Positions 4,595 through 54,168 of a DNA stretch of 64,000 bases are shown piece after piece. Made by a program: the position numbers and the translations under genes. The first letter of the stretch is position 1. The number at the start of each line of letters is the position of its first letter. This DNA comes from Candidatus Nomurabacteria bacterium. Lineage in GTDB: Bacteria; Patescibacteriota; Minisyncoccia; Phycocordibacterales; UBA9973. The stretch covers positions 1,304-65,303 of the forward strand of contig JAPLXO010000003.1 of assembly GCA_026396065.1 (NCBI GenBank). The letters run 5' to 3'. A model generated the notes under the pieces. The model had not been told where the DNA came from. It searched no databases and saw only the letters and a program-made list of their open reading frames with translations.

Positions 4595-4621
4595 ACCAAA
4601 ATATTTGTCTTTCGTAAAGGA

Positions 4622-4828: not shown

Positions 4829-4829
4829 G

Positions 4830-4920
4830 GCCAAAATTGAAAATCGGAATCGGAAGCCGAAATGGGGTCGGCACGAAGTGCCGACACAAATGTATTCCCC
4901 CCAAAAAATCCTGAATCTGA
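4830..4920. repeat. 91-bp inverted repeat, left arm flanking the serine recombinase gene
   Basis: Exact reverse complement of 6320-6410, verified base by base. The similarity continues imperfectly to ~4935. Confidence 0.9.
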
Positions 4921-4966
4921 AAGGGTTCGCCACGCTCCGCGTGGCTCCTCGTTTGCCAATACAATT

Positions 4967-6421: not shown

Positions 6422-6496
6422 GATTCGAACTCACGGACCCCGTAAAGAGTCTCTTGTTTTCAAGACAAGTGCCTTCAACCACTCAGCCACGCCTCC
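6407..6496 (-). tRNA. tRNA-Ser(TGA)
   Basis: Sequence GGAGGCGTGGCTGAGTGGTTGAAGGCACTTGTCTTGAAAACAAG...GTGAGTTCGAATCTCACCGCCTCCGCCA. Long variable arm, anticodon loop cTTGAAa, G73, encoded CCA. Confidence 0.85.
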
Positions 6497-35392: not shown

Positions 35393-35803
35393 ATGAAAAT
35401 ATATTTTGCTGGATCAATACGCGGGGGAAGAGATGATAAAGATATTTATGCTGAAATTATTTCTTTACTTAAAAAATACGGGGAAGTATTAAGTGAACAT
35501 ATTGGTGACAAAGAACTTTCTAGTTTTGGTCAGACACATATGACTGACTCTGAAATTTATCAGAAAGATATTGGTTGGATTAATGAATCAGATATCATTA
35601 TTGCTGAAGTTACAAACCCATCTACTGGTGTTGGTTACGAATTAGGATATGCTGAATTCTTTTGCAAGAAAATAATCGCATTATATAGACCGATTGAAGG
35701 TAAAAGAATTTCTGCTATGATAAAAGGTAATAGCTATATGACTTGTGTCGAATATAAAGAAGTTCCAGAATTAGTAGAAGTTTTTGATAAATATTTAAAA
35801 TAA
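35393..35803 (+). CDS. 2'-deoxynucleoside 5'-phosphate N-hydrolase (DNPH1/Rcl)-like nucleoside 2-deoxyribosyltransferase family protein
   Basis: MKIYFAGSIRGGRDDKDIYAEIISLLKKYGEVLSEHI closely parallels Rcl YFCGSIRGGREDRTLYERIVSRLRRFGTVLTEHV. Also TNPSTGVGYELGYA. Confidence 0.75.
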   Translation: MKIYFAGSIRGGRDDKDIYAEIISLLKKYGEVLSEHIGDKELSSFGQTHMTDSEIYQKDIGWINESDIIIAEVTNPSTGVGYELGYAEFFCKKIIALYRPIEGKRISAMIKGNSYMTCVEYKEVPELVEVFDKYLK

Positions 35804-36225
35804 TGCAACTAAAAATTAAAAAATTAAAAGAAGATGCAAAATTGCCGAGTTATGCTCATCCGGGGGATGTGGGGCTGGATTTGTATTCAATGGAAAATAT
35901 TGTAATAAAACCAGGCGAAGATATTTTTATCTGGCATGGTTTTGCTCTCGAATTCCCAGAGGGATATTGCGCCTTAGTTATGGATAAAGGAAGTATTTCA
36001 AAAGCCGGTCTTAAAACTATGGGTGGGGTTTTTGATGCAGGGTATAGAGGTGAATATAATACACACCTAGTCAATTTATCAGATAAAGAGTATATTATTG
36101 ATGTTGGTGATAAGGTTGCACAGCTTGTTATTGTTCCCGCTATTATCGCTGATATTGAAGAGGTGAGTGAGCTTTCAGACTCTTCACGTGGGGAAGGAAG
36201 ATTTGGTTCGACTGGAAAGAAATAA
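35803..36225 (+). CDS. dut: dUTP diphosphatase
   Basis: PGDVGLDLYS, GYRGEY and a C-terminal SSRGEGRFGSTG motif. Confidence 0.9.
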   Translation: MQLKIKKLKEDAKLPSYAHPGDVGLDLYSMENIVIKPGEDIFIWHGFALEFPEGYCALVMDKGSISKAGLKTMGGVFDAGYRGEYNTHLVNLSDKEYIIDVGDKVAQLVIVPAIIADIEEVSELSDSSRGEGRFGSTGKK

Positions 36226-36264
36226 ACACCTCACCCCAACCCTCTCCTTATTAAGGAGAGTGGG
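36226..36264. repeat. GC-rich palindromic mini-element, intergenic copy
   Basis: ACACCTCACCCCAACCCTCTCCTTAttAAGGAGAGtGGG. Its first 25 nt are identical to the copy at 42444. Confidence 0.8.
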
Positions 36265-36276
36265 AATTAAATTCAA

Positions 36277-37980
36277 ATGAAACAAATAATAGAAAACTTA
36301 ATACGACAAGCTTTAAAAAATCTGGACATAGGCGAGGTGAATTTTATTGTGGAACATCCAGAAGATTTTAAGAATGGAGATTATTCCACAAATGTGGCTA
36401 TGGTGTGCGCAAAGCAATTAAAAATGAATCCGAAAGCACTAGCAGAAAAAATTTCTGCAGAAATTTTTTCTGCTAAAGAGTCACAAATTTCAAAAATAGA
36501 AGTCGCAGGGGCAGGGTTTATAAATTTCTATTTATCACGAGAGTTTTTCAGTAATTCAGTAAAAGAAGTTTTAGAAAAAGGAGCAGATTATGGAAAAAAT
36601 AATTCTCTAACTGGTAAAAAGGTAATGGTGGAATATACTCAGCCAAACCCTTTCAAGCCATTTCATATTGGGCATCTTATGAGTAATTCTATCGGTGAAT
36701 CAATTTCTAGAATTGTTGAATTTTCTGGTGCGAAAACAGTGCGAGCGAATTATCAAGGTGACGTTGGTCCACACGTAGCAAAAGCTATATATGGTATGTA
36801 TAAAGCCGGCCCTCCAGCGAATGAATCTACAGCATCTGTGTCTGTCTTGGCTCAATATATTGGACAATGTTATTCACAGGGTAGTAATTTTTATGATACT
36901 GATGAACAGGCCAAAAAAGAAATAGATGAAATAAATAAAAAAGTTTACAACAGAAGTGATGAAAAAATAAATCAAATATATGATTGGGGTAGGAAAGTAA
37001 CATTGGAAGCTTTTGAAGAACTTTACAAAATTCTCGGTACAAAATTCGATTACTACTTTTTTGAAAGTGAAATGGCTCCAATAGGAGAAAAGATTGTCCG
37101 TGCAAATATTCCGAAAGTTTTTGAAGAGTCTGACGGCGCAATAGTTTTTCATGCAGAAAAATATAATCCAAAGCTCCACACTAGAGTATTCCTCACTTCT
37201 CATGGTATTCCACTTTATGAGACAAAAGAAATAGGCCTCACTACTACAAAATTTGAAAAGGAAAATCCTGATATCTCTATCGTCACCACAGCCATAGAAC
37301 AAGGCGAATATATGAAAGTAGTCCAGCAAGCTATTGCATTAATGCATCCAGAACTAGAATCTAGAATGAAACATATTACTCATGGTATGATGCGCCTAGC
37401 ATCAGGTAAGATGTCTTCTCGAAAAGGAAATGTCGTCACAGGGGAGTCACTGCTTCGTGATTCTATGGATGTAGTTTTAGAGAAAATAAAAGATCGAGAA
37501 TTTACAGATGAAGAAAAGAAAAAAGTTTCCGAAAGTGTCGGTGTGGCTGCACTGAAATATTCAATCCTTCGTTCATCTCTCGGCTCTGATATTATTTATG
37601 ATTTTGAAAAGTCTATTTCATTCGAAGGGGATTCTGGTCCTTATTTGCAATACTCTGCAATGCGTGCAAAATCTATTCTTGCGAAAGCATTGAATCATAC
37701 TTCGTTTAACGAAATTCCAGAACAAGTTTCAGATTTAGAAAAAATACTTTATCGTTTTCCTGAAGTCGTAGCTCATTCATATGCAGAGCTCGAGCCACAT
37801 CATATAGCTACATATCTCACATCTTTGGCTTCTAGTTTTAATTCTTTTTATACGAATACTCAGATATTAAATACAGAAGATAAATATTCTCATTATTATG
37901 TCGCCCTCACGAAAGCCTTTCTCTCCACAATGCAAAACGGCCTTTGGCTTTTAGGAATTACTTTGCCAGAGAGAATGTGA
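36277..37980 (+). CDS. argS: arginyl-tRNA synthetase
   Basis: Arg-tRNA synthetase N-domain (HPEDFKNGDYSTNVAM), HIGH-class motif PFHIGHLMS, KMSSRKG, and a DALR-like C-terminus. Confidence 0.9.
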   Translation: MKQIIENLIRQALKNLDIGEVNFIVEHPEDFKNGDYSTNVAMVCAKQLKMNPKALAEKISAEIFSAKESQISKIEVAGAGFINFYLSREFFSNSVKEVLEKGADYGKNNSLTGKKVMVEYTQPNPFKPFHIGHLMSNSIGESISRIVEFSGAKTVRANYQGDVGPHVAKAIYGMYKAGPPANESTASVSVLAQYIGQCYSQGSNFYDTDEQAKKEIDEINKKVYNRSDEKINQIYDWGRKVTLEAFEELYKILGTKFDYYFFESEMAPIGEKIVRANIPKVFEESDGAIVFHAEKYNPKLHTRVFLTSHGIPLYETKEIGLTTTKFEKENPDISIVTTAIEQGEYMKVVQQAIALMHPELESRMKHITHGMMRLASGKMSSRKGNVVTGESLLRDSMDVVLEKIKDREFTDEEKKKVSESVGVAALKYSILRSSLGSDIIYDFEKSISFEGDSGPYLQYSAMRAKSILAKALNHTSFNEIPEQVSDLEKILYRFPEVVAHSYAELEPHHIATYLTSLASSFNSFYTNTQILNTEDKYSHYYVALTKAFLSTMQNGLWLLGITLPERM

Positions 37981-38030
37981 TTCAGCAGAATCACTCTTGG
38001 AGTAAATTTTATAAAATTTGCAAAAAAATA

Positions 38031-38057
38031 ACCCGCTTCACAATTAAGGAAGCGGGT
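38031..38057. terminator. bidirectional terminator hairpin between argS and the 38061 gene
   Basis: ACCCGCTTCacaattaaGGAAGCGGGT followed by a T-run. Confidence 0.5.
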
Positions 38058-38060
38058 ATT

Positions 38061-38627
38061 TTAATCAGGTTCTAGTCCTGATTCATTGATTTCTTTTGTT
38101 AGTTTCGTTACTTCATTATTAGTAACTTTTTTTCTTTTCTTTAAAATTTTTATCCAACCGAATCCTTCTTTTTTTGAATGAATCTCGGTGGTGCGTCCTC
38201 CACCTCTAAAATAAATTTTACCATGTCGTCCACAACCTTCGCATATTAAAAAATATGCTTGTTTTACGGTCTCGCTAGACTCGAGATATTCAGAGTCTGT
38301 TACCATTTCAGTAAGAAAATCATTCAAATCAGTAAAAAGTTCACTTTTCATTTGAATAATTTTTTTTCTTCTAATTTTAAATGGCATTTTACCTAATATT
38401 ATTTTTTCCGCTTCTTGAATTTCAAGTCCTAAAGCAGATGCATTCATTGTAGAAATTTGGTTGAAACTACGAAGCTTGCTAATTAGGTTTAAAACTTCAA
38501 TTTTTGTTTTGTATGTTTTACTTTTGCTTCCGTTATCGAAAACAAGTTGTGCTTTAGCTCCACCATTGAGCCAAAGTAGCTTGATATGTGTGTCTAAAAT
38601 CATTGTGTGATTATTTGTTAATTTCAA
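38061..38627 (-). CDS. hypothetical protein (188 aa)
   Basis: ORF with no recognisable motif. Confidence 0.5.
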   Translation of the reverse strand: MKLTNNHTMILDTHIKLLWLNGGAKAQLVFDNGSKSKTYKTKIEVLNLISKLRSFNQISTMNASALGLEIQEAEKIILGKMPFKIRRKKIIQMKSELFTDLNDFLTEMVTDSEYLESSETVKQAYFLICEGCGRHGKIYFRGGGRTTEIHSKKEGFGWIKILKKRKKVTNNEVTKLTKEINESGLEPD

Positions 38628-38873
38628 GGTACAGATCGATCGTTCGCTTTCCCTTGGTGGATATACTAGCTTACATAGATTTTATGTCAAATATCTTCTT
38701 TACAATCTAATATTAAAGTGATAGTCTTCGAATAAGATTTCTTTGTAAAATATAAGGTAAGTGAGGGGAGTATTTTGCAAATCTATATAGGTTTTCAAGA
38801 CACTCTTCTCATTAAATTTATTAATGAAAAGAGCGACAATTAACTAGTAATTAATAATTAATACCTTTAAAAG

Positions 38874-39458
38874 ATGAATTTAACACAATTTTTAAATGCA
38901 ATTAAGAGACAAAAACCTCTTATTTGCATCCAGGGTGATATTTTTCTTACCCCTGCGGACCACATTGTATTTGCTGTGAATTACCCATCGAAAGATGGAA
39001 AATGGAATAACACCGGTGGCTTTGCCGGAGATGTTGTAGCCAGAGGATGGACAAATCTTCCTGAAATTAAGTTTGAAAAAGGTCAAACAATTTCAAAAAA
39101 GATTTTTGGAAAAACTTATCATGCAATTGCCGTGCACTCAAACGAAGAATATGGTTGGGACGAAGCTCCAGATCTTATTCAACTTTGTTTAGACAAATTA
39201 CCGGTAAATAGTACTAGCGTAATGGCTATTGTACTAATCGGTGGAGGAAAAGCTGGTGAAAAGTATGTAGCCAGTATTAAAAATGTGGAAGGCATCAGCC
39301 GGACGTATAAAACAGTGGTACTTTATGTTAAAGAAGTGGAGCATTACAAATATTTACTTGCAGCTGGATACGTTTCTGCCGTTGTAGATGTTCCCAGAAC
39401 TTTTAAGTTAAGAGACGACTACTTTCTTACGGAAGAAAGGACGGCTACTTCTGCTTAA
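38874..39458 (+). CDS. macro-domain (ADP-ribose binding/processing) protein
   Basis: ICIQGDIFLTPADHIVFAVN....NNTGGFAGDV matches the macro-domain GDIT...DAIVNAAN...GGGGV pattern. Confidence 0.5.
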   Translation: MNLTQFLNAIKRQKPLICIQGDIFLTPADHIVFAVNYPSKDGKWNNTGGFAGDVVARGWTNLPEIKFEKGQTISKKIFGKTYHAIAVHSNEEYGWDEAPDLIQLCLDKLPVNSTSVMAIVLIGGGKAGEKYVASIKNVEGISRTYKTVVLYVKEVEHYKYLLAAGYVSAVVDVPRTFKLRDDYFLTEERTATSA

Positions 39459-39482
39459 AAATGATTTTATTTTTTATATTGT

Positions 39483-39515
39483 AAAAATCCTTTTGGTGTA
39501 TATCAAAAGGATTTT
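39483..39515 (+). terminator. terminator hairpin after the macro-domain gene
   Basis: AAAATCCTTTTggtgtatatcAAAAGGATTTT. Confidence 0.5.
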
Positions 39516-39554
39516 TAATTTGTAATTTTTTGTGATTTTGTGTATAGTATAAAT

Positions 39555-39708
39555 ACAAGCGTTGAAGGGAAATCACCCCTGAGCTTTGGGAAGAAACCTG
39601 TAAAAAGGCGTAGAACCCATTAAATGAGAAGTAAGCAAGGTGGTACCACGAGAAACTCGTCCTTGTATAGCAATTTAATTATTGTTGTACGCGGACGAGT
39701 TTTTTTAA
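39555..39708 (+). ncRNA. T-box riboswitch leader of ileS (Ile AUC specifier candidate)
   Basis: Conserved T-box sequence AAGGTGGTACCACGAG. Terminator ACTCGTCC...GGACGAGTTTTTTT directly precedes the ileS ATG. An AUC-A is present in the stem I region (gaaATCAccc). Confidence 0.6.
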
Positions 39709-39726
39709 TTTTAATTTAATAAATAT

Positions 39727-42700
39727 ATGGAAGAAAAAAAAGATACAACTAAATCAGAAATAGCACTTCGCGAAGAAGCGGTTTTGGCTTTTTGGCGAGA
39801 AAATAAAACATTTGAAAAATCTTTAGAAAAAGAATCTCCAAAAGGAAATTATGTTTTTTATGATGGTCCACCATTTGCGACAGGGCAGATGCACTACGGG
39901 CATATTTTAGGTTCGACTGCGAAAGATGTCATCGGTCGCTATCAAACTATGCGCGGATACCATGTTCCACGAAAATGGGGCTGGGATTGTCATGGTTTGC
40001 CTATTGAAAACATTGTAGAAAAAGAACTCGGAATAGCAGGACATAAAGAAATTGAAAAATATGGAATAGAAAAGTTTATTGAGTATGCACGAAGTAAAGT
40101 TTTGCAATATGAAGATGATTGGGAATCTGGTGTAGAGCGTATCGGTCGCTGGGTGGATTTTCGTGGTGGCTACAAGACGATGGATAATAATTTTATCGAA
40201 TCAGTGTGGTGGGCGCTTTCAGAATTTTATAAAAAAGGTTTAGTTTATGAAGGTGTGCGCGTACTGGCGTATTGCGCCCGCTGTGAGACACCAATAGCGA
40301 ATTCCGAAATCGCGATGGATAACAGTTATAAAGATATTTCTGATCTTTCAGTATATGTGAAATTTGAATTAGTAGACGAACCAAATACATATTTACTCGC
40401 GTGGACTACTACACCTTGGACTTTGCCAGGGAATACTGCTATCGCGATAAATAAAGATATTGATTATGTAAAAGTAAGACTTACAGAGGATGCTCAAATC
40501 CAAAAAGCTGGAACAGGTACTTATAATGTTTATACTCCTGAATTTTTAATTTTAGCTAAAGTTCTTGTTGAGAAAGTTTTAAAGGATAAAATATTTGAAG
40601 TTGTTGAAGAATATAAAGGTGAAAAATTAGTCGGAAAATCATACAAACCAATTTTTAAATATTATGAAAATGTTGAAATGCCAAATAAAGAAAATATTTG
40701 GAAAGTTTGGCATGCAGATTTCGTAACGACAGAAAAGGGAACAGGTATCGCACACCAAGCCCCAGCTTTCGGAGAAGAAGACTTCGTCTTGGCAAAAGAA
40801 AATAACGTACCATTTATTATTCACGTGAATAATACTGGCAAATTCGTAGATCAAGTTTCTGATATGGCAGGGCTAGCAGTAAAACCAAAAGACACAGCTG
40901 AAGACAAAGACGCGCACATGCGCACAGACATAGAAGTCATCAGAAAACTCCAAGAAAACGGAGCATTTTTTGCGAAAGAAAAAATACTGCACTCATACCC
41001 GCACTGTATGCGTTGTGATACTCCTATTATTTATTATGCTTTGCCATCTTGGTTTATCAATATCACGAAAGTAAAATCAGATATTGCAAAAAGTGCCGAA
41101 GAAATGAATTGGATTCCAGCGCACCTAAAAGATGGAAGATTTAAAAATATTTTAGAATCTGCCCCTGATTGGAATATCTCTCGCAATCGTTATTGGGCTT
41201 CGCCTCTTCCTGTTTGGAAATGCACGAAGTGTAAAGAAATGAAATTTATTTCTTCACTTGAAGATTTGAAAAAGCATACAAAAAAATCTGGAAATAAATA
41301 TTTTGTAATGCGTCATGGTGAGACAGAGGCAAATAAAAAAGGAATAATCTGTTCTATGCCTTCTGGTAAGTGGCATTTGGATGAAGATGGAATAAGGCAA
41401 GTCGAAAATGCAGGTGAGAATATGAAAGATAAGAAAATCGACTTGATATTTGTATCTGATTTTACTCGTACACAAGAAACAGCTGAAATAATGAGGTTAA
41501 AACTCGGCTTGGAAAAAGAGAGTGTAATAGTAGAGAAAAGGCTTCGTGAAATAGGCGCGTATTCTTTTGATGGAAAAGTTTGGGATGAATATCACGCATT
41601 TCATACAAAGACAGTAGAGAATTTCAACAAGCGCGTGAATGATGATGAATCGTACGAAGATGTGAAAGTTCGTATGACAGCATTCCTATATGAAATAGAA
41701 GAAAAATATAAAGGTAAAAATATTTTATTTGTCACTCACGGTGGGCCAGCTTGGCTTTTGACGGCAGGATCTATGGGTAATGATGTAAAAGAAACCTTGG
41801 CAATGATTTTAGATGTTAAGGATTATCATTATTTCCAAAATGCGGAAATAAAAGAATTGGATTTTACTCCTATCTCACACAATGCAAAATTTGAACTTGA
41901 TTTTCATCGACCATATATCGACAATATAAATCTCATTTGTGAGTGTGGTGAAGAAATGAAAAGAATCCCAGAAGTGCTGGATTGCTGGTTTGAATCTGGT
42001 TCTATGCCTTTCGCTCAAGATCATTTTCCTTTTGACCCCGAAGGAAAGATTACTTCCTACGGGGCAGGAAATTCAGACTGGGAAAAGAACAACTTTCCTG
42101 CAGGATTCGTGGCTGAATATATCGCTCAGACTAGAACATGGTTCAACTACACTCTCACAGTTTCTTCTGTTTTATTTGGTCATGCACCTTTTAAAAATGT
42201 CGTGACGACTGGAACTGTGCGCGCAGAAGATGGAGAAAAAATGTCTAAATCGAAAAATAATTTCCCTAATCCAAAGACTTTATTTGATAAGTATGGTGTG
42301 GATGCACTTCGTATGTATTTGATGTCTGGTCCACTAATGAAAGGGGAAGATGCGAATTTCGTAGAAAAACTCGTACAAGAAATATCTAGTAAAATAGTCG
42401 GCCGACTTGAAAACGTTGTTGCCTTTTATGAATTGTATAAAGACACCTCACCCCAACCCTCTCCTTATAAAGGAGAGGGAGCTAAAAACGTGCTTGATGT
42501 ATGGATTCTTTCTCGACTTGCACAAGTGATGGAAGAAGTGACTCTTGGTATGGAAGCTTATGATATGGCTTCGGCTACAAAACCTTTTGATTTATTTATC
42601 GATGACCTTTCTACTTGGTATCTCCGTCGTTCCCGTGACAGAATGAAAGAAGAGGCAAGCAACCCCGAAGGAAAGAGTACTTCCTACGGGGCAAGAACGA

Positions 42701-43347
42701 CTTTGTATTTTGTACTCAAAAATTTGGCAAAAGTCATAGCTCCGTTTGCGCCATTCGTGTCAGAAAACATTTGGATGAAATTGCGACTTGAGAATGAAGT
42801 TGAAAGTGTACATTTAGTAAACTGGCCCGACCTCACCCTGCCCTCTCCTGGAGAGGAGAGGGTTCTAGAAGAGATGCAGAAAACGAGAAACATTGTTTCT
42901 GTGGGATTAAAAGAGAGGCAAAAATTAGGAATTCCTGTGCGTCAGGTTTTGGGTGGTGTGAAAGTTAGTATTGAAAAATTAGATAATGAATATTTAGATT
43001 TAATAAAAGAAGAGTTGAACGTCAAAGAAGTGACACTAGAAACTAGCAACTCGAACCTAGAAACTAGTGTCGTACTCGACACGGTCATTACTCCCGAACT
43101 AAAAGAAGAAGGGAACTACCGTGAACTCGTTCGCGCGATTCAAGACATGCGTAAAAAAGCAGGGCTCACTCCTTCAGATATAATTTCTCTTTCTATAGAA
43201 ACTGACGAGATAGGAAAATCTTTAATTCAAAAATTCGAAGCTGATTTCAAGAAAACTATTTTGGTGAAAGAAATAAAGTTTGAGAGTAATACTGGGGAAG
43301 AAGTAAAAGTGGATACTTTAATCTTTAAAGTTAGTATTGAAAAATAA
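39727..43347 (+). CDS. ileS: isoleucyl-tRNA synthetase carrying an embedded histidine-phosphatase domain and several in-frame palindromic mini-insertions
   Basis: HIGH (PFATGQMHYGHIL), editing domain, KMSKS (GEKMSKSKNN), zinc-knuckle halves CTKC ... CECG. 1206 aa, versus roughly 920-1050 aa for typical IleS. Confidence 0.95.
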   Translation: MEEKKDTTKSEIALREEAVLAFWRENKTFEKSLEKESPKGNYVFYDGPPFATGQMHYGHILGSTAKDVIGRYQTMRGYHVPRKWGWDCHGLPIENIVEKELGIAGHKEIEKYGIEKFIEYARSKVLQYEDDWESGVERIGRWVDFRGGYKTMDNNFIESVWWALSEFYKKGLVYEGVRVLAYCARCETPIANSEIAMDNSYKDISDLSVYVKFELVDEPNTYLLAWTTTPWTLPGNTAIAINKDIDYVKVRLTEDAQIQKAGTGTYNVYTPEFLILAKVLVEKVLKDKIFEVVEEYKGEKLVGKSYKPIFKYYENVEMPNKENIWKVWHADFVTTEKGTGIAHQAPAFGEEDFVLAKENNVPFIIHVNNTGKFVDQVSDMAGLAVKPKDTAEDKDAHMRTDIEVIRKLQENGAFFAKEKILHSYPHCMRCDTPIIYYALPSWFINITKVKSDIAKSAEEMNWIPAHLKDGRFKNILESAPDWNISRNRYWASPLPVWKCTKCKEMKFISSLEDLKKHTKKSGNKYFVMRHGETEANKKGIICSMPSGKWHLDEDGIRQVENAGENMKDKKIDLIFVSDFTRTQETAEIMRLKLGLEKESVIVEKRLREIGAYSFDGKVWDEYHAFHTKTVENFNKRVNDDESYEDVKVRMTAFLYEIEEKYKGKNILFVTHGGPAWLLTAGSMGNDVKETLAMILDVKDYHYFQNAEIKELDFTPISHNAKFELDFHRPYIDNINLICECGEEMKRIPEVLDCWFESGSMPFAQDHFPFDPEGKITSYGAGNSDWEKNNFPAGFVAEYIAQTRTWFNYTLTVSSVLFGHAPFKNVVTTGTVRAEDGEKMSKSKNNFPNPKTLFDKYGVDALRMYLMSGPLMKGEDANFVEKLVQEISSKIVGRLENVVAFYELYKDTSPQPSPYKGEGAKNVLDVWILSRLAQVMEEVTLGMEAYDMASATKPFDLFIDDLSTWYLRRSRDRMKEEASNPEGKSTSYGARTTLYFVLKNLAKVIAPFAPFVSENIWMKLRLENEVESVHLVNWPDLTLPSPGEERVLEEMQKTRNIVSVGLKERQKLGIPVRQVLGGVKVSIEKLDNEYLDLIKEELNVKEVTLETSNSNLETSVVLDTVITPELKEEGNYRELVRAIQDMRKKAGLTPSDIISLSIETDEIGKSLIQKFEADFKKTILVKEIKFESNTGEEVKVDTLIFKVSIEK
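41240..41900 (+). other. in-frame histidine phosphatase (PGAM-like) domain inserted between the two zinc-knuckle halves of IleS
   Basis: YFVMRHGETEANKKG (RHG catalytic His motif) ... ILFVTHGGPAWLL (second conserved His motif). ~220 aa between PVWKCTKCKE and ICECGEEM. Confidence 0.7.
42036..42064. repeat. 29-bp palindromic insert CCCCGAAGGAAAGATTACTTCCTACGGGG, in-frame in ileS
   Basis: Encodes PEGKITSYG. A second copy at 42663-42691 differs by one nt. Confidence 0.8.
42444..42479. repeat. GC-rich palindromic mini-element, in-frame in ileS
   Basis: CACCTCACCCCAACCCTCTCCTTataAAGGAGAGGG with a 10-bp perfect stem. Encodes TSPQPSPYKGEG. Confidence 0.85.
42663..42691. repeat. second copy of the 29-bp palindromic insert, in-frame in ileS
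   Basis: CCCCGAAGGAAAGAGTACTTCCTACGGGG. Encodes PEGKSTSYG. Confidence 0.8.
42831..42862. repeat. variant GC-rich palindromic mini-element, in-frame in ileS
   Basis: CCTCACCCTGCCCTCTCCTggagAGGAGAGGG. Encodes LTLPSPGEER. Confidence 0.7.
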
Positions 43348-43366
43348 GGGTATTTACTCATTTTGC

Positions 43367-43395
43367 TTGACTTTTTCGTGCATTGGTGCTATACT
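43367..43395 (+). promoter_or_regulatory. near-consensus sigma70-type promoter upstream of the DGR target gene
   Basis: TTGACT - 17 bp - TATACT. Confidence 0.5.
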
Positions 43396-43530
43396 TTCAG
43401 TTGGTAAAGTTCGTTGAAAAATGCTTGTTTTTGGGCTTGTTGCTCGGTTTTAGGAATCTTTATTTTATTTGGATTCTTGAAACTGGGCAATAATGCTTGG
43501 GCTAAAAAAACAATCTAAAACAAAAACAAA

Positions 43531-44112
43531 ATGAAAAAATTTAAACTTGTATTGGTAATTGTTGCAATAGTTGCTTCAATTATCGCGAATGTTGTGTATG
43601 TACCTGAAGTTCGCATCCTTTGCTTTATTTTCGAATACTTCGCACTCGGTTTTTTACTTCTGCAAATTATCGCAGAGGAAAGTGGAATTGAAGTTATGAA
43701 ATTACCTGATTCTGAAACAGGCGAAACGATTTCAAAAGACTTCTTGAACTCGGGTTATTACTACGAGGGCATAGATGGCTTTTGGAAAAGTTTAGCAAAA
43801 CTTCTTCCCATTTTTCCTAAGGAAATTCTTCTTCAACAAATCAACGAAGGAGTAAAAACTGAAGAACAAATGATGGATGGCAGGAATTGGTTGTCGAGAA
43901 AGGAAGCTATGAGTTTCGGAGCACAAAATGTTAAAAGCGGTGAGTACAAAGACGGAAAGGTACGTATTTACTTCTTTAAAGACGAAGAAAACAAAGGTCA
44001 GCGCTCTGAGCTCTGCGTTTGTTTGGATGGTGACAGTCCGGACGTGGACGTGGGCAAGTTCAATCCAGAGAACCGGTGGCGCAATGGCCGCATCTCGTAT
44101 TCTCGCAAATAG
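43531..44112 (+). CDS. DGR target protein: small membrane-anchored protein with a C-terminal variable region
   Basis: N-terminal TM helices. The last ~37 codons (43996-44107) form the VR paired with the TR at 44458-44569. Confidence 0.7.
   Translation: MKKFKLVLVIVAIVASIIANVVYVPEVRILCFIFEYFALGFLLLQIIAEESGIEVMKLPDSETGETISKDFLNSGYYYEGIDGFWKSLAKLLPIFPKEILLQQINEGVKTEEQMMDGRNWLSRKEAMSFGAQNVKSGEYKDGKVRIYFFKDEENKGQRSELCVCLDGDSPDVDVGKFNPENRWRNGRISYSRK
43996..44107 (+). repeat. DGR variable repeat (VR)
   Basis: 112-bp alignment with the TR. About 20 mismatches, every one at a position where the TR has A (the VR has G or C). Confidence 0.85.
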
Positions 44113-44132
44113 ATATTTGCGAAACTTATCTT

Positions 44133-44175
44133 AAAGGGCTCTTTGATTCTTTTGAATCTGGGGCCCTTTAATTTT
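44133..44175 (+). terminator. GC hairpin plus T-run just downstream of the VR (terminator and/or homing-associated hairpin)
   Basis: AAAGGGC-23 nt-GCCCTTT followed by a T run. Confidence 0.45.
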
Positions 44176-44457
44176 TTTTTATTTTTTAAAATGTTAGAAT
44201 ATATACAGAACAGTGCGGTAATTTTCGGCAGTGTCCAATATTCTAATTAGAATACAAGCTTCTTGAAATACATTGTTTCGATTTTAATACGGTCAGAATT
44301 GTGTCGGCGAATTTTTATTTTCTTACACAAGAGCACGATATTATTTTCCATTAAAAAAATATTTATTGGTGATACTACTAGTGAGCTTCGATGCTCCAAA
44401 TAATATTCAAAAGTTTATGATTTAAACTTTGGTGGCACAGATGGTCGTATCACAGAA

Positions 44458-44569
44458 GGTCAGCGCTCTAAACTCTACGTTTATTTGAATGGTGACAATC
44501 CGAACGTGAACGTGAACAAGTTCAATCCAGAGAACAAGTGGAACAATGGCAACATCTCGTATTCTCGAA
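44458..44569 (+). repeat. DGR template repeat (TR), non-coding
   Basis: Rich in AAC/AAT codons when read in the VR frame (GQRSKLYVYLNGDNPNVNVNKFNPENKWNNGNISYSRN). No ORF covers it. Confidence 0.85.
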
Positions 44570-44640
44570 ACAAAAATTTTCTCCCCGTTTATCATTTTGG
44601 TAAATGAGGAGTTTTTAATTTACGTACATTTCTGCTATCG

Positions 44641-44985
44641 CTAGGATTTACGTAATTTTGTTTCGATTCCTTTTTTCCAACCTCCTAAAATTTTACCGAC
44701 TTCGTGAAGTTTACTTGAAAGTTCTAAATATTCTTTTTCTTTGATCAATTTGTTTTCAAAAGCAATTTGAAGTAGGTATTTTATAATGTCGTTCTTACTG
44801 ATAGCTTCGACTATCACAATGCTTTTGTTTTCCATCCCAGCATAGTATGCTTTGTAGATGAGTTCAAGTAAATCTAAAAAATGGTTTTCAATTCTGGCAC
44901 CAGTTGTATATCTGCCGATACGAGGCATATGAGGGACGATATTACTACACCAAATAGCGAAGCTCTCTTTTGTTCGCAAGATCAC
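44641..44985 (-). CDS. avd: DGR accessory variability determinant (Avd), four-helix-bundle protein
   Basis: 114 aa. C-terminal EVGKILGGW matches Bordetella phage Avd EVGRILGSW. Resembles the 23S-rRNA-IVS protein family. Confidence 0.75.
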   Translation of the reverse strand: MILRTKESFAIWCSNIVPHMPRIGRYTTGARIENHFLDLLELIYKAYYAGMENKSIVIVEAISKNDIIKYLLQIAFENKLIKEKEYLELSSKLHEVGKILGGWKKGIETKLRKS

Positions 44986-45010
44986 ACTGGCTTTCTCGAT
45001 GGAAAAAGTA

Positions 45011-45033
45011 GTGTGTGTGTGTGTGTGTGTGTG
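45011..45033. repeat. (GT)11.5 dinucleotide microsatellite at the start of the RT ORF
   Basis: GTGTGTGTGTGTGTGTGTGTGTG. Encodes VCVCVC at the RT N-terminus. Lies 26-48 nt upstream of the avd start on the other strand. Confidence 0.9.
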
Positions 45034-46046
45034 GATTCAGCCATGCCTTCAATAATATCATATTGGTAGAAAATTTGTTTGTATCGTGGCGAGAATTTTT
45101 GCGAGGTAAAAGCAAACGAAAAGATGTGATTTTGTTTGGAATGAATTTGATGGATAATATTTTTTCTCTCCACAACGACCTTAAAAATAAAAAATATAAA
45201 CACAGTAATTACGAAGCATTTAAAATAAACGACCCGAAACCGAGAGACATACACAAAGCCAGTGTGCGAGACAGACTTTTACACCATTCTATCTATCGTA
45301 CGCTGTATCCGTACTTTGATAAGAAATTCATTTACGATTCATATTCTTGCCGATTAGGAAAGGGAACACATAAAGCAATATATAGATTTGAAAGTTTTGT
45401 AAATAAAGTAAGCAAGAATAATACAAAAACCTGCTGGGTTTTGAAATGCGACATCAGAAAGTTTTTTGCAAATATTGACCATGAAATATTGAAAAACATT
45501 TTGGCGAAATACATACAAGACAAAGATACATTAAATTTGTTAAGGAATATAATAGATAGCTTTCAAAGTGACACAAACTCTGCCTATGCAGAAAGTGTGT
45601 CACTTTCTGCTATTGGTTTACCGTTAGGTAATTTAACTTCACAGCTTCTAGTAAATATTTATATGAATGAATTTGATCAGTACGTGAAGCATAAGCTCAA
45701 AGTGAAATATTATATTAGATATGCGGATGATTTTGTAGTATTGAGTGAAGATAAAAAGTATTTGGAAGAAATACTGGAAGAAGTCGCAAATTTTCTGAAA
45801 GAAAATTTGCGACTAAAGTTACATCCAAACAAAGTTTTTAGTAAAACAATATTTTCTGGTGTAGACTTTCTCGGCTGGGTGCATTTTCCAAGACATCGAG
45901 TGTTGCGAAATGCTACTAAAAAAAGAATGCTTAGAAATTTAAAGAAAAATAGTAGTGAAAATGTAAAAGCTTCATATTTAGGAATGTTGAGTCATGGGAA
46001 TGGTTTTAAATTAAAGAATCATATTTACGCCATGGCTGAGATATAA
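45015..46046 (+). CDS. DGR reverse transcriptase
   Basis: IGLPLGNLTSQ (DGR-specific IGxxxSQ motif 4), YADD (YIRYADDFVV). N-terminus ILVENLFVSWREFLRGKSKRKD aligns to Bordetella bRT. Apparent GTG start inside the GT tract. Confidence 0.9.
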   Translation: MCVCVCGFSHAFNNIILVENLFVSWREFLRGKSKRKDVILFGMNLMDNIFSLHNDLKNKKYKHSNYEAFKINDPKPRDIHKASVRDRLLHHSIYRTLYPYFDKKFIYDSYSCRLGKGTHKAIYRFESFVNKVSKNNTKTCWVLKCDIRKFFANIDHEILKNILAKYIQDKDTLNLLRNIIDSFQSDTNSAYAESVSLSAIGLPLGNLTSQLLVNIYMNEFDQYVKHKLKVKYYIRYADDFVVLSEDKKYLEEILEEVANFLKENLRLKLHPNKVFSKTIFSGVDFLGWVHFPRHRVLRNATKKRMLRNLKKNSSENVKASYLGMLSHGNGFKLKNHIYAMAEI

Positions 46047-46056
46047 AATAAATATT

Positions 46057-48321
46057 TTATTCAAAATGCAATTGTAAATGCTTCTTTGTGAGCATGTCTT
46101 TTAATTTTGGGAAATTACGGAGGTCTGGGTCAGTGGTTATTAGGTTTGTCGCTTCGAGGCGTGCGGCTTCTACCATTTTTATATTTTTAATCGCTTCCAT
46201 ACCGAGGTCGGTGATGCCCCATTGCTTTGAGCCTGCGAGTTCTCCTGCACCACGGAGCGATAGGTCGAGTTCAGAAAGCTCGAAACCATTTTTAGCCGTT
46301 TTTAATGCTTTCAATCGATGCATAGTTTTTTCTGATTTGGCTTCGGCAAAAACATAACAAAAGGCTTGATGATTACTACGTATCACGCGTCCGCGGAGCT
46401 GGTGAAGTTGTGCGAGTCCAAATCTCTCTGCACCTTCGATAATTATTATTGTAGCATTAGGCACATTCACACCGACTTCGATTACAGAAGTCGCGACGAG
46501 AATATCAATAGCCCCTAAAGTGAAACGTTCCATAACTTTCTCCTTTTTTTCTTTTGTCATCTTACTGTGGAGCACATCTATTTCACAGTCTTGGAAAACT
46601 TCTTTTTTAAGTCTTTTGGCTTCAGCGACTGCGGATTTCATGGTGAGGGCGAGTTCTTTTTCAGGATCTGGTTCGTCGATACGAGGGCAGATGACATAGA
46701 GCTGTCTACCTTTCGCCATTTCTTCTTTTATTTTTTTATAAGTATCTTCTCTTTTGTCTGGGGTAATTATTTCTGTAATAACTGGTTTTCTACCAGCTGG
46801 CATCTCATCGAGTAAACTCAAATCAAGGTCACCATAAATAGTGAGTGCGAGTGTGCGGGGGATCGGTGTCGCTGTCATTGAAAGTAGGTGTGGAGCGAAG
46901 CCATCCTTTCTAACTAAATTTCTTCTCTGTGCCGTACCGAAACGGTGTTGCTCGTCGATGATAGTAAGTGCGAGATTTTTAAATTTCACCGATTTTGAAA
47001 TGAGTGCGTGAGTGCCGATAAGTATTGGAATTTCACCATTAGCAGTCCATTTCAAAAGTTGAGCTCTGGAAATATTTGTCCATCCGTCAGGGCTGACTTT
47101 GGATGGAAATTTGCGACAGGTCTTGCCTGTAAGTAGTGCTACATTTATTGGTAAGTGTTTAAAATATTTTATAAATGATTCAAAATGCTGAGTCGCTAAA
47201 ATTTCTGTCGGTGCCATATAGGCGACTTGTAAATTACCGAATCCATCTTTCCCCTCCTGCCTGAGGAGGGGTGTTTTGGAATCAAAACGGGGTGGTGGGA
47301 GAGGAGGTCTTTGAGTAACTGTGGCATATGTTACCGTCGCAGCGACTGCTGTTTTACCAGAGCCGACGTCACCTTCGAGCAGGCGAGACATTGGGTGATC
47401 AGCTTTTATATCTGTCAGAATTGTGTTGATAGCATCGACTTGGCCTTGAGTGGCTTCAAAAGGAAAACGTTCCAAAAATTCTTGTACTTTTGTTTCATCT
47501 GGATTAACACGAAATGATTTATTATTTTTATATTCTCTTCGGTCTTGTTGTCTTTGTAATTGGATGAAAAAAACTTCTTCAAAAGCAAAACGCTTTCTAG
47601 CTGAAAGGGAATCATGTTCATTTTGCGGTGTGTGAATCCAAATGAGTGATGTTTTTAAACTAGGTAAATGATATTTATCTAAAATGTCTTTTGGTATGTA
47701 ATCAAAAAAACCATCTAGCACACTACTGTTAAATATTTTTTGTATTGTATGGTAAATCCATTTAGAAGTTATGCCTCTAGTTTCTCTGTATACAGGATAT
47801 GAAAGTCCTGTATTATTTTCTCCCCCTTTATAAGGGGGAGTGCCCAAAGGGCGAGGGGGTGAATTTTTAAATAAACTCTCATGTTTATCTATCGGTAGAT
47901 TTCCAATTTTTTCAAATTCTGGATTGGTAAGATATAAACCACTTTTACTTTCCGTCACTTTTCCTGTTAGCTTTATATTTTCACCTTCGTGAATCATTTT
48001 GGCTAGATATGCTTGGTGAAACCAAATGATTTTTATTCTCCCTGAAAGATCCTCAATATAAGCTTCACCCATTGGTATATGTGAACGAAAACCTTTTTTT
48101 GTTTTTAAATTTGTAACTTTTCCATAAACCGTCGCTGTCTCACCAGCTATCAATTCATCGATTTGTTTTATTTGAGAAATATCTGAGTAACGAACAGGAA
48201 AGTAGAATAGCAAATCGGCAACAGAAAAAAGCCCGAGCTTATGAAGGGCTTTTTTCTGGTTGATATCGAGGCGGGAAATATCCTCTAACTTATCACCTAT
48301 ATTCATAGTTTTAGTTACCAA
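46057..48321 (-). CDS. recG: ATP-dependent DNA helicase RecG, with two in-frame palindromic insertions
   Basis: Wedge/OB N-terminus. GDVGSGKT (motif I), DEQHRFG (motif II), C-terminal helicase motifs. 754 aa. Confidence 0.9.
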   Translation of the reverse strand: MVTKTMNIGDKLEDISRLDINQKKALHKLGLFSVADLLFYFPVRYSDISQIKQIDELIAGETATVYGKVTNLKTKKGFRSHIPMGEAYIEDLSGRIKIIWFHQAYLAKMIHEGENIKLTGKVTESKSGLYLTNPEFEKIGNLPIDKHESLFKNSPPRPLGTPPYKGGENNTGLSYPVYRETRGITSKWIYHTIQKIFNSSVLDGFFDYIPKDILDKYHLPSLKTSLIWIHTPQNEHDSLSARKRFAFEEVFFIQLQRQQDRREYKNNKSFRVNPDETKVQEFLERFPFEATQGQVDAINTILTDIKADHPMSRLLEGDVGSGKTAVAATVTYATVTQRPPLPPPRFDSKTPLLRQEGKDGFGNLQVAYMAPTEILATQHFESFIKYFKHLPINVALLTGKTCRKFPSKVSPDGWTNISRAQLLKWTANGEIPILIGTHALISKSVKFKNLALTIIDEQHRFGTAQRRNLVRKDGFAPHLLSMTATPIPRTLALTIYGDLDLSLLDEMPAGRKPVITEIITPDKREDTYKKIKEEMAKGRQLYVICPRIDEPDPEKELALTMKSAVAEAKRLKKEVFQDCEIDVLHSKMTKEKKEKVMERFTLGAIDILVATSVIEVGVNVPNATIIIIEGAERFGLAQLHQLRGRVIRSNHQAFCYVFAEAKSEKTMHRLKALKTAKNGFELSELDLSLRGAGELAGSKQWGITDLGMEAIKNIKMVEAARLEATNLITTDPDLRNFPKLKDMLTKKHLQLHFE
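47222..47308. repeat. GC-rich palindromic insert in recG, between helicase motifs I and Ia
   Basis: CCCCTCCtgcctgaGGAGGGG ... GGGTGGTGGGAGAGGAGG. Encodes RPPLPPPRFDSKTPLLRQEGKDGFGNL where other RecG run directly into QVA(Y)MAPTEILA. Confidence 0.75.
47810..47851. repeat. GC-rich palindromic mini-element in recG
   Basis: CTCCCCCTTtatAAGGGGGAG + GCCCaaaGGGC. Encodes GTPPYKGGENN. Confidence 0.8.
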
Positions 48322-53805: not shown

Positions 53806-53865
53806 TACTTTAAATTTAGAATGTGTTCACAAAAAAAAATGTTAAATACAGTTAAAAAAACTTTG

Positions 53866-53951
53866 CGGAAGCGGTGAGATTCGAACTCACGGTCCTTTAA
53901 AGGGACGGCGGTTTAGTAAACCGCTGCCTTAAACCACTCGGCCACGCTTCC
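53866..53951 (-). tRNA. type-II tRNA (Ser-like; long variable arm, G73) whose anticodon reads ACT
   Basis: GGAAGCGTGGCCGAGTGGTTTAAGGCAGCGGTTTACTAAACCGCCGTCCCTTTAAAGGACCGTGAGTTCGAATCTCACCGCTTCCG. Perfect 5-bp anticodon stem GCGGT/ACCGC with loop TTACTAA. Confidence 0.6.
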
Positions 53952-54013: not shown

Positions 54014-54102
54014 GGAGCCGTGTCAGAGTGGTCTAACGTACCTCTTTGCTAAAGAGGCAGGGGCTTCAAAACCCCTCGACGGTTCGAATCCGTCCGGCTC
54101 CG
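54014..54102 (+). tRNA. tRNA-Ser(GCT)
   Basis: Anticodon stem-loop CCTCT-TTGCTAA-AGAGG, long variable arm, discriminator G. Confidence 0.8.
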
Positions 54103-54168
54103 CAAAGGTTGAAAATTTATTAATAAAAGTTTGTAATAATTAAAAGTCTAGAACGGCTTAGGTAATAT

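Follow-up and report, generated by a model that had tools for sequence, protein, structure and literature searches.

Five short GC-rich hairpin repeats with triplex-motif (TM) architecture were found in the window, the whole 64-kb stretch of a Nomurabacteria genome (candidate phyla radiation, CPR; 34% GC) that was analysed, and four of the five lie in frame in coding sequence. We consider it probable (roughly 70%) that they are copies of a non-autonomous repeat, an AT-adapted form of the BoxC/PIT/TMECO family, that is copied into permissive loops, lost from them and translated there, with behaviour like that of Rickettsia palindromic elements (RPEs). The elements belong to the family by architecture, are conserved at the nucleotide level, occupy sites that are empty, filled or replaced in relatives, and fall in predicted coil loops.

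Architecture and location of the elements

The original prediction listed four copies of a plain palindrome, one at the dut stop, two in ileS and one in recG. All four are present where they were placed, their peptides were read correctly and in frame in IleS and RecG, and Pfam agrees with the gene identities dut, ileS and recG. The palindrome description missed the third block that defines the elements. Each element is built of three parts. A pyrimidine arm is joined by a short loop to a homopurine arm with which it pairs; past a linker, the G-rich strand carries a third G/T/A block that can bind the purine arm in antiparallel orientation, forming G*G-C, A*A-T and T*A-T triads under purine-motif rules. 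A search for homopurine hairpins accompanied by a triad-compatible third block returned exactly five elements in the window and none in each of 30 shuffles. The core pattern CCTCTCCTTNNNAAGGAGAG had four matches (two loci, both strands) compared with 0.05 expected, a number reached by 0 of 100 shuffles. All five elements have their G-rich strand antisense to the genes that host or flank them. Folding energies of the hairpins range from -15.9 to -22.5 kcal/mol, with z-scores of about -3 to -4 for copy 1 (the intergenic copy, for which folding had been proposed as a check), copy 2 and the recG copy, and only -1.0 for copy 3 (42831).

Copy 1 (36226-36276, + strand) is intergenic and runs from the dut stop to the argS start (dut, 35803-36225; argS, 36277-37980; both Pfam). 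It begins at the base directly after the dut stop codon and reads A-CCTCACCCC-AA-CCCTCTCCTTA-T-TAAGGAGAG(t)GGG, with an AT-rich tail of 12 nt after it. Copy 2 (42443-42481, + strand) is in frame in ileS and encodes DTSPQPSPYKGEG at IleS residues 906-918 (also given as TSPQPSPYKGEG). It consists of the third block CCTCACCC, the linker CAA and a perfect 10-bp hairpin, CCCTCTCCTT/AAGGAGAGGG, has the conserved flanks A...AG, and allows nine consecutive valid triads. The segments 36226-36260 and 42443-42477, 6 kb apart, are identical at 34 of 35 nt, and their first 25 nt (ACACCTCACCCCAACCCTCTCCTTA) are the same, as predicted. The perfect 9-10 bp hairpin attributed to both holds for copy 2 but not for the intergenic copy, whose right arm has a 1-nt bulge (GGAGAGtGGG). 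Copy 3 (42828-42862, + strand), in frame at IleS residues 1035-1046 with the peptide DLTLPSPGEERV, has the layout CCTCACCC-TG-CCCTCTCCT-GGAG-AGGAGAGGG, with a 2-nt linker and nine triads.

The two elements in recG are variants. At site 1 (47810-47862, - strand; RecG residues about 155-171), the variant, termed type R, encodes RPLGTPPYKGGENNT at RecG 157-171 (PPRPLGTPPYKGGE for about 155-171). Its sense strand carries CACCCCCTC, a linker with the mini-hairpin GCCCTTTGGGCA, and then CTCCCCCTT-ATA-AAGGGGGAG; the third block, GAGGGGGT, covaries with the stem, and eight triads are possible. The TM-like element at site 2 (47242-47300, - strand; RecG residues about 339-360) encodes PPLPPPRFDSKTPLLRQEGK. 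It has the hairpin CCCCTCCT/AGGAGGGG, a 17-nt linker with the mini-hairpin GTTTTG..CAAAAC, the third block GGGGTGGT on the G-rich strand, and eight triads. This element (47251-47296) is a fifth copy that the original prediction did not list.

Both host ORFs are intact. ileS (39727-43347, + strand; Pfam) encodes 1206 aa with four in-frame hairpin segments, and its product has a His_Phos_1 domain inserted at residues 526-695. recG (46057-48321, - strand; Pfam) encodes 754 aa with the two TM-type segments; the database protein P0121 (749 aa) is 100% identical.

The two other hairpin segments of ileS, likewise absent from the original list, form a second, non-triplex family, CCCCGAAGGAA-N7-TTCCTACGGGG, with a conserved A-A mismatch (two matches, 0.00 expected). 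Copy a (42036-42064, + strand) encodes DPEGKITSYGA, a net insertion of 11 aa, and copy b (42663-42691, + strand) encodes NPEGKSTSYGA, a net insertion of 9 aa. A third block was sought in copy a and none was found. Nearly the same DNA as copy b occurs at the same site in L249 and L250, IleS orthologs with no more than about 47-49% identity over the C-terminal region; in L249 the stems are identical and the loop is different.

In AlphaFold2 models all six coding hairpin segments fall in coil loops, in line with the surface-loop location that had been put forward for checking. Both recG inserts are predicted as coil with pLDDT below 50 (residues 136-181 for site 1 and 343-357 for site 2). The four ileS segments are all coil between helices (copy 2 at fragment residues 165-182, copy b at 240-249), with pLDDT below 50 only in the first (42036-42064) and dips to 67-86 in the other three.

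Empty, filled and replaced sites

Relatives differ from the window at the same sites. At the dut-argS junction of L248 all 51 nt are absent and the dut TAA overlaps the argS ATG (AAATAATGAAACAA); the two genes also overlap in the gene table of P0242, an 88% relative. Site 1 of recG is empty in L121 (85% DNA identity), and the RecG of L248 is only 721 aa long. In L122 (87%) the same site contains a remnant, TTCACCCCCT, together with a canonical copy; the 36-nt core of this copy (CCTCACCCCAACCCTCTCCTTATAAAGGAGAGGGAG) matches the window's ileS copy exactly. L247 also has a canonical copy there. P0126, P0127 and P0130 share the site 2 element; other orthologs show FDxAQGKP at this position or lack any insert. 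The prediction of a mobile or recombinogenic element fits the empty sites in close relatives; with no mobilising enzyme identified, we infer mobility from distribution only.

The original prediction also held that the copies add loops to their host proteins. This is true of recG, where the inserts add 13 and 17 aa relative to the nearest orthologs, but not of the TM copies in ileS, where loop length changes by only about +2 and -2 aa. These copies take the place of loop sequence and are not mere additions. The sequence of copy 2 is absent from the nearest IleS orthologs, and the loop that holds copy 3 has different inserts in other orthologs (P0010, P0017). Because the core of the window's IleS is only about 40% identical to the core in close relatives, the ileS TM copies have no true empty-site comparison.

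Family membership and distribution

The 19-mer CCTCACCCCAACCCTCTCC matches at least 120 genome loci across many phyla. Among the matches listed these are Proteobacteria, Bacteroidota, Planctomycetota, Chloroflexota, Cyanobacteria, Myxococcota and Acidobacteriota, with one Parcubacteria genome, and in 112 of the 125 listed, GGAGAGGG follows within 30 nt with no more than one mismatch. E. coli genomes have a median of 12 places each. Such a distribution is at odds with a new, lineage-specific family, and BoxC/PIT/TMECO had already been described in the 1990s (Bergler/Bachellier), in 2000 (Hoyne & Maher) and in 2015 (Holder et al., PMC4666352). Judged by architecture, the window elements are AT-adapted members or variants of this intrastrand triplex motif family rather than a new one.

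The published pattern is CCCTCNCCC-N3-6-GGGNGAGGG-N3-GGGNGAGGG (PMC4666352). The G-rich strand of copy 2 reads CCCTCTCCt-TTATA-aGGAGAGGG-TTG-GGGTGAGGt; one triplet differs, T-A*T in place of C-G*G, and remains valid as a triad. Like BoxC/PIT/TMECO, the elements have three blocks of nearly the same sequence (the CCCTCTCC hairpin, a 3-nt linker and GGGTGAGG), share the 19-mer, are 34-37 nt long, occur in multiple copies with no transposase nearby, and are associated with local indel differences among related genomes. As in that family, no target-site duplication was detected: direct-repeat matches in the flanks were no higher than in re-paired controls. Unlike BoxC/PIT/TMECO, they reside in a 34% GC CPR genome and carry the AT-adapted apical triplet, and the recG variants have long linkers (12 and 17 nt) with a mini-hairpin of their own and different stems, with covarying third blocks; these two fail the strict published pattern. 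The BoxC motif of E. coli K-12 is "always located intergenically" and Holder et al. reported TMECO in proteobacterial genomes, with no mobilising enzyme near the E. coli copies (PMC4666352); PIT elements were also known from Synechocystis and H. influenzae through earlier work.

Coding location, in contrast to E. coli, extends beyond the window. At least 120 metagenome contigs contain an exact 21-mer of the element, whose ends are sharp and conserved (A at -1 in 67 of 74 copies, G at +2 in 71 of 74), and at 19-20 of 94 AT-rich metagenome loci (about 20%) the 21-mer lies in a long ORF. The reading frame gives TSPQPSPxKGEG in twelve of these copies and PHPNPLLxKERE in five; a further three are antisense (GEGWGE). 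Pfam identified the hosts of seven as HsdR, two class I tRNA synthetases, UvrA, MgsA, UvrC and a PNPase-like protein with RNase PH, KH and S1 domains. Since copies are intergenic, in at least two sense reading frames and antisense, conservation is at the nucleotide level and not at the peptide level.

Comparison with other repeats

The likeness to RPEs that was originally drawn stands for behaviour: the elements are palindromic, occur both intergenically and in frame in unrelated housekeeping genes, insert where protein structure tolerates them, and are patchy among orthologs. RPEs are about 100-150 bp long, specific to Rickettsia and each encode a conserved peptide (Ogata et al. 2000; review PMC10969869). 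At 33-46 nt, with a pan-bacterial sequence, a third (triplex) block and several reading frames, the window elements are not RPEs, and that identity was rejected. With REP/REPIN sequences and hairpin-targeting insertion sequences they share a short GC-rich hairpin, a conserved single-stranded 5' flank, sharp ends, the lack of target-site duplication, genome-specific variant families and hairpin-by-hairpin replacement at one site. REP/REPIN elements depend on RAYT (Y1) transposases for mobilisation, and REPs are defined as extragenic; the window elements have no GTAG or CGTC tag, and no RAYT was present among the subset of window ORFs scanned. GC-rich palindromes also spread in other AT-rich genomes, including in-frame copies in protein genes; examples are the mobile GC clusters and double-hairpin elements of fungal mitochondria and the palindromic coding repeats of Methanocaldococcus jannaschii. 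Their sequences and hosts are unrelated to those in the window, and we know of no triplex-type third block described for them.

Alternative explanations

A cis function at the RNA or DNA level might be what mainly keeps the elements, the coding location then being purposeful (for example, to pause transcription or translation between protein domains, to stabilise the mRNA or to act as programmed recombination hot spots). This is compatible with spread by copying but unlikely as the principal cause. Coding copies mostly have the C-rich strand as sense (4 of 4 in the window, 17 of 20 in the metagenomes), although one of the three reading frames on the G-rich strand contains a TGA, which predicts part of this bias. 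Stems are conserved while loops vary. Holder et al. tie such motifs to local genomic instability (PMC4666352) and the window's ileS is a mosaic relative to close relatives, but its breakpoints do not coincide with the elements. In E. coli, PIT/TMECO had neither promoter or terminator activity nor an effect on polymerases in vivo (PMC4666352), and many orthologs work without the inserts.

It is distinctly improbable that template switching or quasi-palindrome formation, with slippage, created the hairpins de novo at fragile loops and that their similarity is convergent, one site never having been copied to another. Across orthologs the loops concerned are hypervariable in both length and sequence, and in L249 the same two loops of IleS bear another palindrome, AAGGACAGTCCTT. 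Convergence could not attain the identity between copies 1 and 2, the match of the L122 core to the window's ileS copy, or the sharp-ended 21-mer in so many metagenome contigs. Shared derived positions with no structural role are also partly seen, in the ATAAA loop that recurs in many of these contigs.

The segments might instead be ancestral or selected protein loops, a functional Pro/Gly-rich peptide from which the nucleotide similarity follows; we regard this as very doubtful. A similar peptide, PPRPxGTPPSQGE, is present at the type R position in 20 of 65 RecG orthologs, which by the original prediction's own test counts partly against it, and the recG copy is therefore not a private recent insertion. 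Several distant IleS orthologs have NPE..YGAR at the matching position. Simple ancestry is nevertheless inadequate: the distribution is patchy, and the closest relatives are empty or have a different element at the same site. Carriers do not cluster on the RecG tree, where type R requires at least 15 changes compared with 17.2 for shuffled labels, rough counts from a neighbour-joining tree of sequences about 70% identical. Third-codon identity is 67-79% inside the element and 44-50% in the rest of recG. The same DNA is intergenic at the dut-argS junction and is read in two sense frames and antisense in unrelated proteins, and the inserts are in predicted coil, with pLDDT below 50 in three of the six.

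A diversity-generating retroelement (DGR; VR, TR, bAvd and RT at 43994-46046) lies between ileS and recG, and its RT might write cDNA into GC-rich tract and hairpin targets, leaving the repeats as by-products. L121 and L248 have no DGR between ileS and recG, or anywhere in the ~22-kb loci, and lack the recG inserts, and L245, an insert carrier, has a DGR about 7 kb from recG. However, L122, L246 and L247 carry inserts with no RT found in the available DNA around recG, the family is abundant in E. coli and many other genomes, the sequence 3' of VR is not a triplex motif, and the elements have no adenine-specific mutation pattern, making this origin highly improbable. The genome was assembled from a metagenome, but errors of assembly or binning, chimeric joins at repeats among them, are a negligible concern, as every coding copy leaves its ORF intact and the same elements are at the same sites in independent NCBI, ENA and JGI assemblies.

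Proposed origin and significance

We therefore favour a non-autonomous repeat that, in this Nomurabacteria genome and related AT-rich lineages, would be written into tolerated places: gene junctions and, in frame, the permissive surface loops of large housekeeping proteins. On the C-rich sense strand, the third block and left arm are free of stop codons in all frames, so that coding copies would be translated as Pro/Ser-turn-Gly/Glu loops; the intact ORFs of 1206 and 754 aa suggest that they are. Copies would be gained, swapped for other copies and lost at a high rate, and a given loop would therefore differ between close relatives. Our best guess for the copying is a structure-dependent process without target-site duplication. 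It might take place at stalled forks, through templated repair or through gene conversion between copies, or a putative hairpin-recognising enzyme might act in trans; losses would come from hairpin-mediated slippage. Because triplex formation in double-stranded DNA or in vivo is not supported in E. coli (PMC4666352), the third block may be conserved for another reason. What appears to be new is the coding location; the repeat family itself has long been known but unexplained.

Distribution and architecture of the elements

The original prediction described a family of GC-rich palindromic elements at four places in the window: next to the stop codon of dut (35803-36225; argS follows at 36277-37980), twice in ileS (39727-43347, 1206 aa) and once in recG (46057-48321, minus strand), the genes being assigned here by Pfam. 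All four were present where it had placed them. Copy 1 occupies the dut-argS junction (36226-36276), copies 2 and 3 lie in ileS (42443-42481 and 42828-42862), and recG site 1 spans 47810-47862 on the minus strand; the in-frame reading of the encoded peptides was correct. Positions 36226-36260 and 42443-42477 are identical at 34 of 35 nt, the quoted 25-nt 5' part included, and this part, taken at first as mere flank, is instead a structural module (the third block). The core pattern matched four times in the window (two loci on both strands) compared to 0.05 expected by chance. The hairpins folded well below shuffled controls with the exception of the copy at 42831, whose z-score was only -1.0. 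A hairpin survey of the whole window yielded a second GC hairpin in recG (47251-47271), missing from the prediction, within what is called here recG site 2 (47242-47300, minus strand). The window is AT-rich (GC about 28-40% in 2-kb bins), and an Rfam scan of it at gathering thresholds returned seven tRNAs only, with no match at the elements.

Read on its G-rich strand, copy 2 is CCCTCTCCTT-TAT-AAGGAGAGGG-TTG-GGGTGAGGT, a homopurine/homopyrimidine hairpin and, after it, a G-rich block able to lie antiparallel on the purine arm, with nine consecutive valid purine-motif base triples (triads). An architecture finder written for this analysis (homopurine hairpin plus triad-compatible third block) was run on the window and on 30 shuffles. 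Exactly five elements were returned in the 64 kb and none in the 30 shuffles: intergenic copy 1 (36228-36260), ileS copies 2 (42445-42479) and 3 (42830-42862), recG site 2 (47251-47296) and recG site 1 (47820-47860). With a threshold of at least eight positions (G*G-C, A*A-T, T*A-T), all five had eight or nine consecutive triads when one hairpin mismatch or bulge was allowed, copy 1 scoring 7 if perfect stems only are counted. No more than three triads were found in any of the window's 15 remaining strong hairpins.

Relation to a known family

The triplex-motif element TMECO has the pattern 5'-CCCTCNCCC-N3-6-GGGNGAGGG-N3-GGGNGAGGG (Holder et al. 2015, PMC4666352) and is the BoxC element of the 1990s, which Hoyne and Maher came upon again in 2000 and called the PIT element (PMC4666352). 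There are 3610 copies in 262 proteobacterial genomes, and the 23 copies of E. coli K-12 are "always located intergenically"; single strands form a triplex in vitro, with none detectable in vivo, and the copies show no transposase link and are associated with local sequence instability (PMC4666352).

Copies 2 and 3 form the hairpin of this pattern (about 9 bp, arms CCCTCNCCC and GGGNGAGGG, 3-6 nt loop), with arms CCCTCTCCt and aGGAGAGGG in which one apical pair is changed in a compensatory manner, and with loops of 3-5 nt; the hairpin of copy 1 has a 1-nt bulge. In copies 1 and 2 a 3-nt TTG linker precedes GGGTGAGGt, fitting the GGGNGAGGG-block spacing, and the linker of copy 3 is 2 nt. The recG elements have linkers of 12 nt and 17 nt, each containing a mini-hairpin. 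Their stems CTCCCCCTT and CCCCTCCT (also written AAGGGGGAG and AGGAGGGG) fall outside the published sequence pattern, and their third blocks, GAGGGGGT and GGGGTGGT, covary with the differing stems. Linker and block spacing thus make three copies close TMECO matches and the other two variants; the finder's tally was three canonical and two variant copies in the window and zero or one in each of the related 9-22 kb loci. The canonical window copies match the published pattern save for one apical triplet, C-G*G to T-A*T, which is still a valid triad and fits the AT-rich genome. The window elements belong to the BoxC/PIT/triplex-motif family as an AT-adapted variant that tolerates coding positions. 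Whereas the family is intergenic in E. coli, a described property and not a definition, four of the five window copies are coding.

The family is broadly distributed. Scanning GTDB representative genomes with the 19-mer CCTCACCCCAACCCTCTCC gave at least 120 loci, the matches listed coming from Proteobacteria, Bacteroidota, Planctomycetota, Chloroflexota, Cyanobacteria/Melainabacteria, Myxococcota, Acidobacteriota and one Parcubacteria genome. In 112 of the 125 matches listed, GGAGAGGG (at most one mismatch) followed within 30 nt of the 19-mer. E. coli genomes had a median of 12 similar places per genome, and no annotated feature lay under the 20 E. coli matches listed.

The AT-adapted 21-mer occurred at no fewer than 120 metagenome loci, and 94 of the matches listed were below 50% GC. 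Of these AT-rich loci, 19-20 lay in long ORFs (no stop for 80-100 codons or more to either side). Among the matches listed, the coding copies were read in the TSPQPSPxKGEG frame (12), in the PHPNPLLxKERE frame (5) or antisense as GEGWGE (3). Seven hosts were recognized by Pfam: HsdR, two class I tRNA synthetases, UvrA, MgsA, UvrC and a PNPase-like protein with RNase PH, KH and S1 domains. No report of in-frame BoxC, PIT or TMECO copies was found in the literature searched, most subscription journals lying outside it; on element peptides, CPR palindromic insertions and TMECO follow-ups, the only relevant items in it were PMC4666352, a preprint on G-quadruplexes and a MITE review.

RecG sites and the dut-argS junction

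The window RecG is 100% identical to P0121, a database protein from a Candidatus Nomurabacteria metagenome-assembled genome. Site 1 is empty in the 85% relative L121, while in the 87% relative L122 the first 12 nt of the window element are followed by a canonical copy whose 36-nt core is identical to the window ileS copy. The window type was present at this site in L245 and L246, and a GC-rich canonical copy in L247. At site 2, three genomes with 85-87% identity each show a different state. The window type at site 1 (type R) was shared by 20 of 65 RecG orthologs. On a neighbour-joining tree of these 65, type R needs at least 15 changes, compared to 17.2 with shuffled labels. Third-codon identity was 67-79% inside the recG element (a small sample of 14-15 codons) and 44-50% in the rest of the gene. 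Both inserts (residues 136-181 and 343-357) are coil in the RecG AlphaFold2 model, with pLDDT below 50.

Copy 1 is a 51-nt insertion; in the related locus L248 the stop codon of dut and the start codon of argS overlap, and the gene table of an 88% relative (P0242) shows a dut/argS overlap.

A third loop cassette, FD(F/Y/S)AQGKP, was seen at RecG site 2 of P0122, P0138, P0150, P0155, P0159, P0165, P0174 and P0213 and at IleS site 1 of P0004, P0048 and P0051, and so in differing loops of differing Parcubacteria proteins. It is probably a further repeat family.

IleS sites

The window ileS is a mosaic with respect to L121 and L248: identity to them is about 68-83% in the phosphatase domain and about 75-89% at the C-terminal end, whereas the synthetase core is about 40% identical to two cores that are 80-90% identical to each other. 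Because of this, the empty-site comparison for IleS rests on 60 more distant orthologs. Against these, all four IleS hairpin segments lie in indel-variable loops. The nearest orthologs (about 49-62% identical in the C-terminal region) are without these sequences, and in the same loops more distant ones carry related elements: HLTPSPISLIRRGVGERF (P0046), HLTPWPLSLLRRGVEERF (P0010) or, in several cases, ANPEVEQVHYGAR. The IleS of the Parcubacteria locus L249 has the palindrome AAGGACAGTCCTT in both loops that carry triplex motifs in the window, indicating that the same loops carry genome-specific hairpins; the two palindromes (L249 3522-3561 and 3922-3958) have 13-bp arms, AAGGACAGTCCTT and AAGGACTGTCCTT. 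An AlphaFold2 model of the IleS C-terminal region has all four segments as coil connecting helices; pLDDT falls below 50 in the first alone, with dips to 67-86 in the other three.

A second in-frame hairpin pair is present in ileS at 42036-42064 and 42663-42691 (two matches compared to 0.00 expected). This family, CCCCGAAGGAA-N7-TTCCTACGGGG, has a conserved A-A mismatch and is without a triplex block. Orthologs that share only about 47% protein identity (L249 and L250) have almost the same DNA of this family at the same IleS site, and the 248 loci searched yielded no further copies (CCCCGAAG...ACGGGG).

Residues 526-695 of IleS are a whole His_Phos_1 (histidine-phosphatase) domain inserted in the synthetase, a fusion common to many Parcubacteria orthologs. 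Gene calls often divide the orthologs into two or three overlapping ORFs, as in L249 (856-4459; 95, 461 and 656 aa), and many database entries are fragments of 650-750 aa. The split ORFs may reflect frameshifts, low-coverage sequencing errors or truly split genes.

Element ends and alternative assignments

Across 74 metagenome copies the ends are sharp, A-CCTCACC... and ...GGAGAGGG-RG, with A at -1 in 67 of 74 and G at +2 in 71 of 74. These copies showed no flanking consensus beyond A at -1 and RG at +1/+2, and no target-site duplication, direct repeats in the flanks being no commoner than in re-paired controls.

The original prediction likened the elements to Rickettsia palindromic elements (RPEs). 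The likeness in behaviour was borne out: the window elements share with RPEs insertion in frame, in unrelated protein genes and at structurally permissive positions. In size and host they differ: RPEs are about 100-150 bp and belong to Rickettsia sequence families, whereas the window elements are 33-46 nt and their host is a Nomurabacteria genome. By size and host they are not RPEs, and they are not a novel family.

An origin of the elements from a diversity-generating retroelement (DGR) is very unlikely. L122, L246 and L247 have inserts, yet an RT is absent from the DNA examined around recG, and the L122 ORF beside recG is not an RT; E. coli and other genomes have many copies of the family; and the sequence downstream of the VR repeat of the window DGR is an ordinary hairpin.

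A MITE has terminal inverted repeats plus a target-site duplication; the 74 copies gave no duplication signal, and the dut-argS insertion has no clean duplication. REP and REPIN sequences have a GTAG or CGTC tetranucleotide at one palindrome end and a cognate RAYT (Y1 transposase); the ends described here bear no such tag, and no Y1 transposase was among the 19 window ORFs scanned against Pfam.

Other features of the window

A complete DGR lies between ileS and recG (43531-46046). It comprises VR (43994-44108, at the 3' end of the ORF 43531-44112), TR (44456-44570), bAvd (44641-44985, minus strand) and RT (45015-46046, plus strand). All TR/VR differences in the 115-nt repeat are at TR adenines, and neither L121 nor L248 has a DGR at the ileS-recG position. 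A (GT)n microsatellite of about 12 units (45008-45034), in the gap between the divergent bAvd and RT and at the listed GTG start of RT, could turn the DGR on and off by slipped-strand mispairing.

GC-rich 210-nt inverted repeats (97% complementary) flank a C5 cytosine methylase (2392-3525) and an unassigned ORF at 3534-4325; the whole (2184-4831) is possibly a restriction-modification cassette that can invert or move. At 4830-6496, perfect 93-nt inverted repeats flank a large serine recombinase (4862-6421) that abuts tRNA-Ser(TGA) (6407-6496), a possible integrative element or inversion switch. ARAGORN placed a tRNA-Ser with anticodon ACT at 53865-53951, beside tRNA-Ser(GCT) at 54014-54103; among bacteria, a serine tRNA with A34 is unusual.

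Discussion

About thirty years after they came to be known, BoxC/PIT/TMECO elements have, to our knowledge, no accepted function or mode of spread. Our results show that a nucleotide-conserved three-block repeat turns over by gain, replacement and loss, both at gene junctions and in permissive protein loops. As the ORFs are intact, the coding copies are presumably translated. Spread would be by copying, without target duplication, and loss may be due to slippage, the route put forward for E. coli by Holder et al.

A bolder reading, which we regard as unlikely, is that the BoxC/PIT/triplex motif is an active, pan-bacterial, structure-recognized mobile element that in CPR, like other genome-specific palindromes, homes to pre-existing hairpins. 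If so, IleS sites 2 and 4 and RecG sites 1 and 2 would be landing pads for swapped hairpin cassettes, a hitherto unrecognized source of protein-loop diversification, and the coding copies would be a natural covariation set in which the three-block fold, and not the hairpin alone, is recognized.

Because it occurs in frame in essential genes of ultra-small CPR bacteria, this architecture offers three new handles on function and spread of the BoxC/PIT/triplex-motif family. Selection on all three blocks is supported by the triad change from C-G*G to T-A*T and by variant stems whose third blocks match them. Sites that are empty, filled or replaced between genomes 85-90% identical provide dated events, with which population metagenomics could catch insertion and excision under way. 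The inserts also provide a permissiveness map of insert-tolerant loops in IleS, RecG and other housekeeping proteins. For annotation, Pro/Gly-rich inserts in metagenomic proteins such as "TSPQPSPYKGEG" or "GEGWGE" are repeat-derived.
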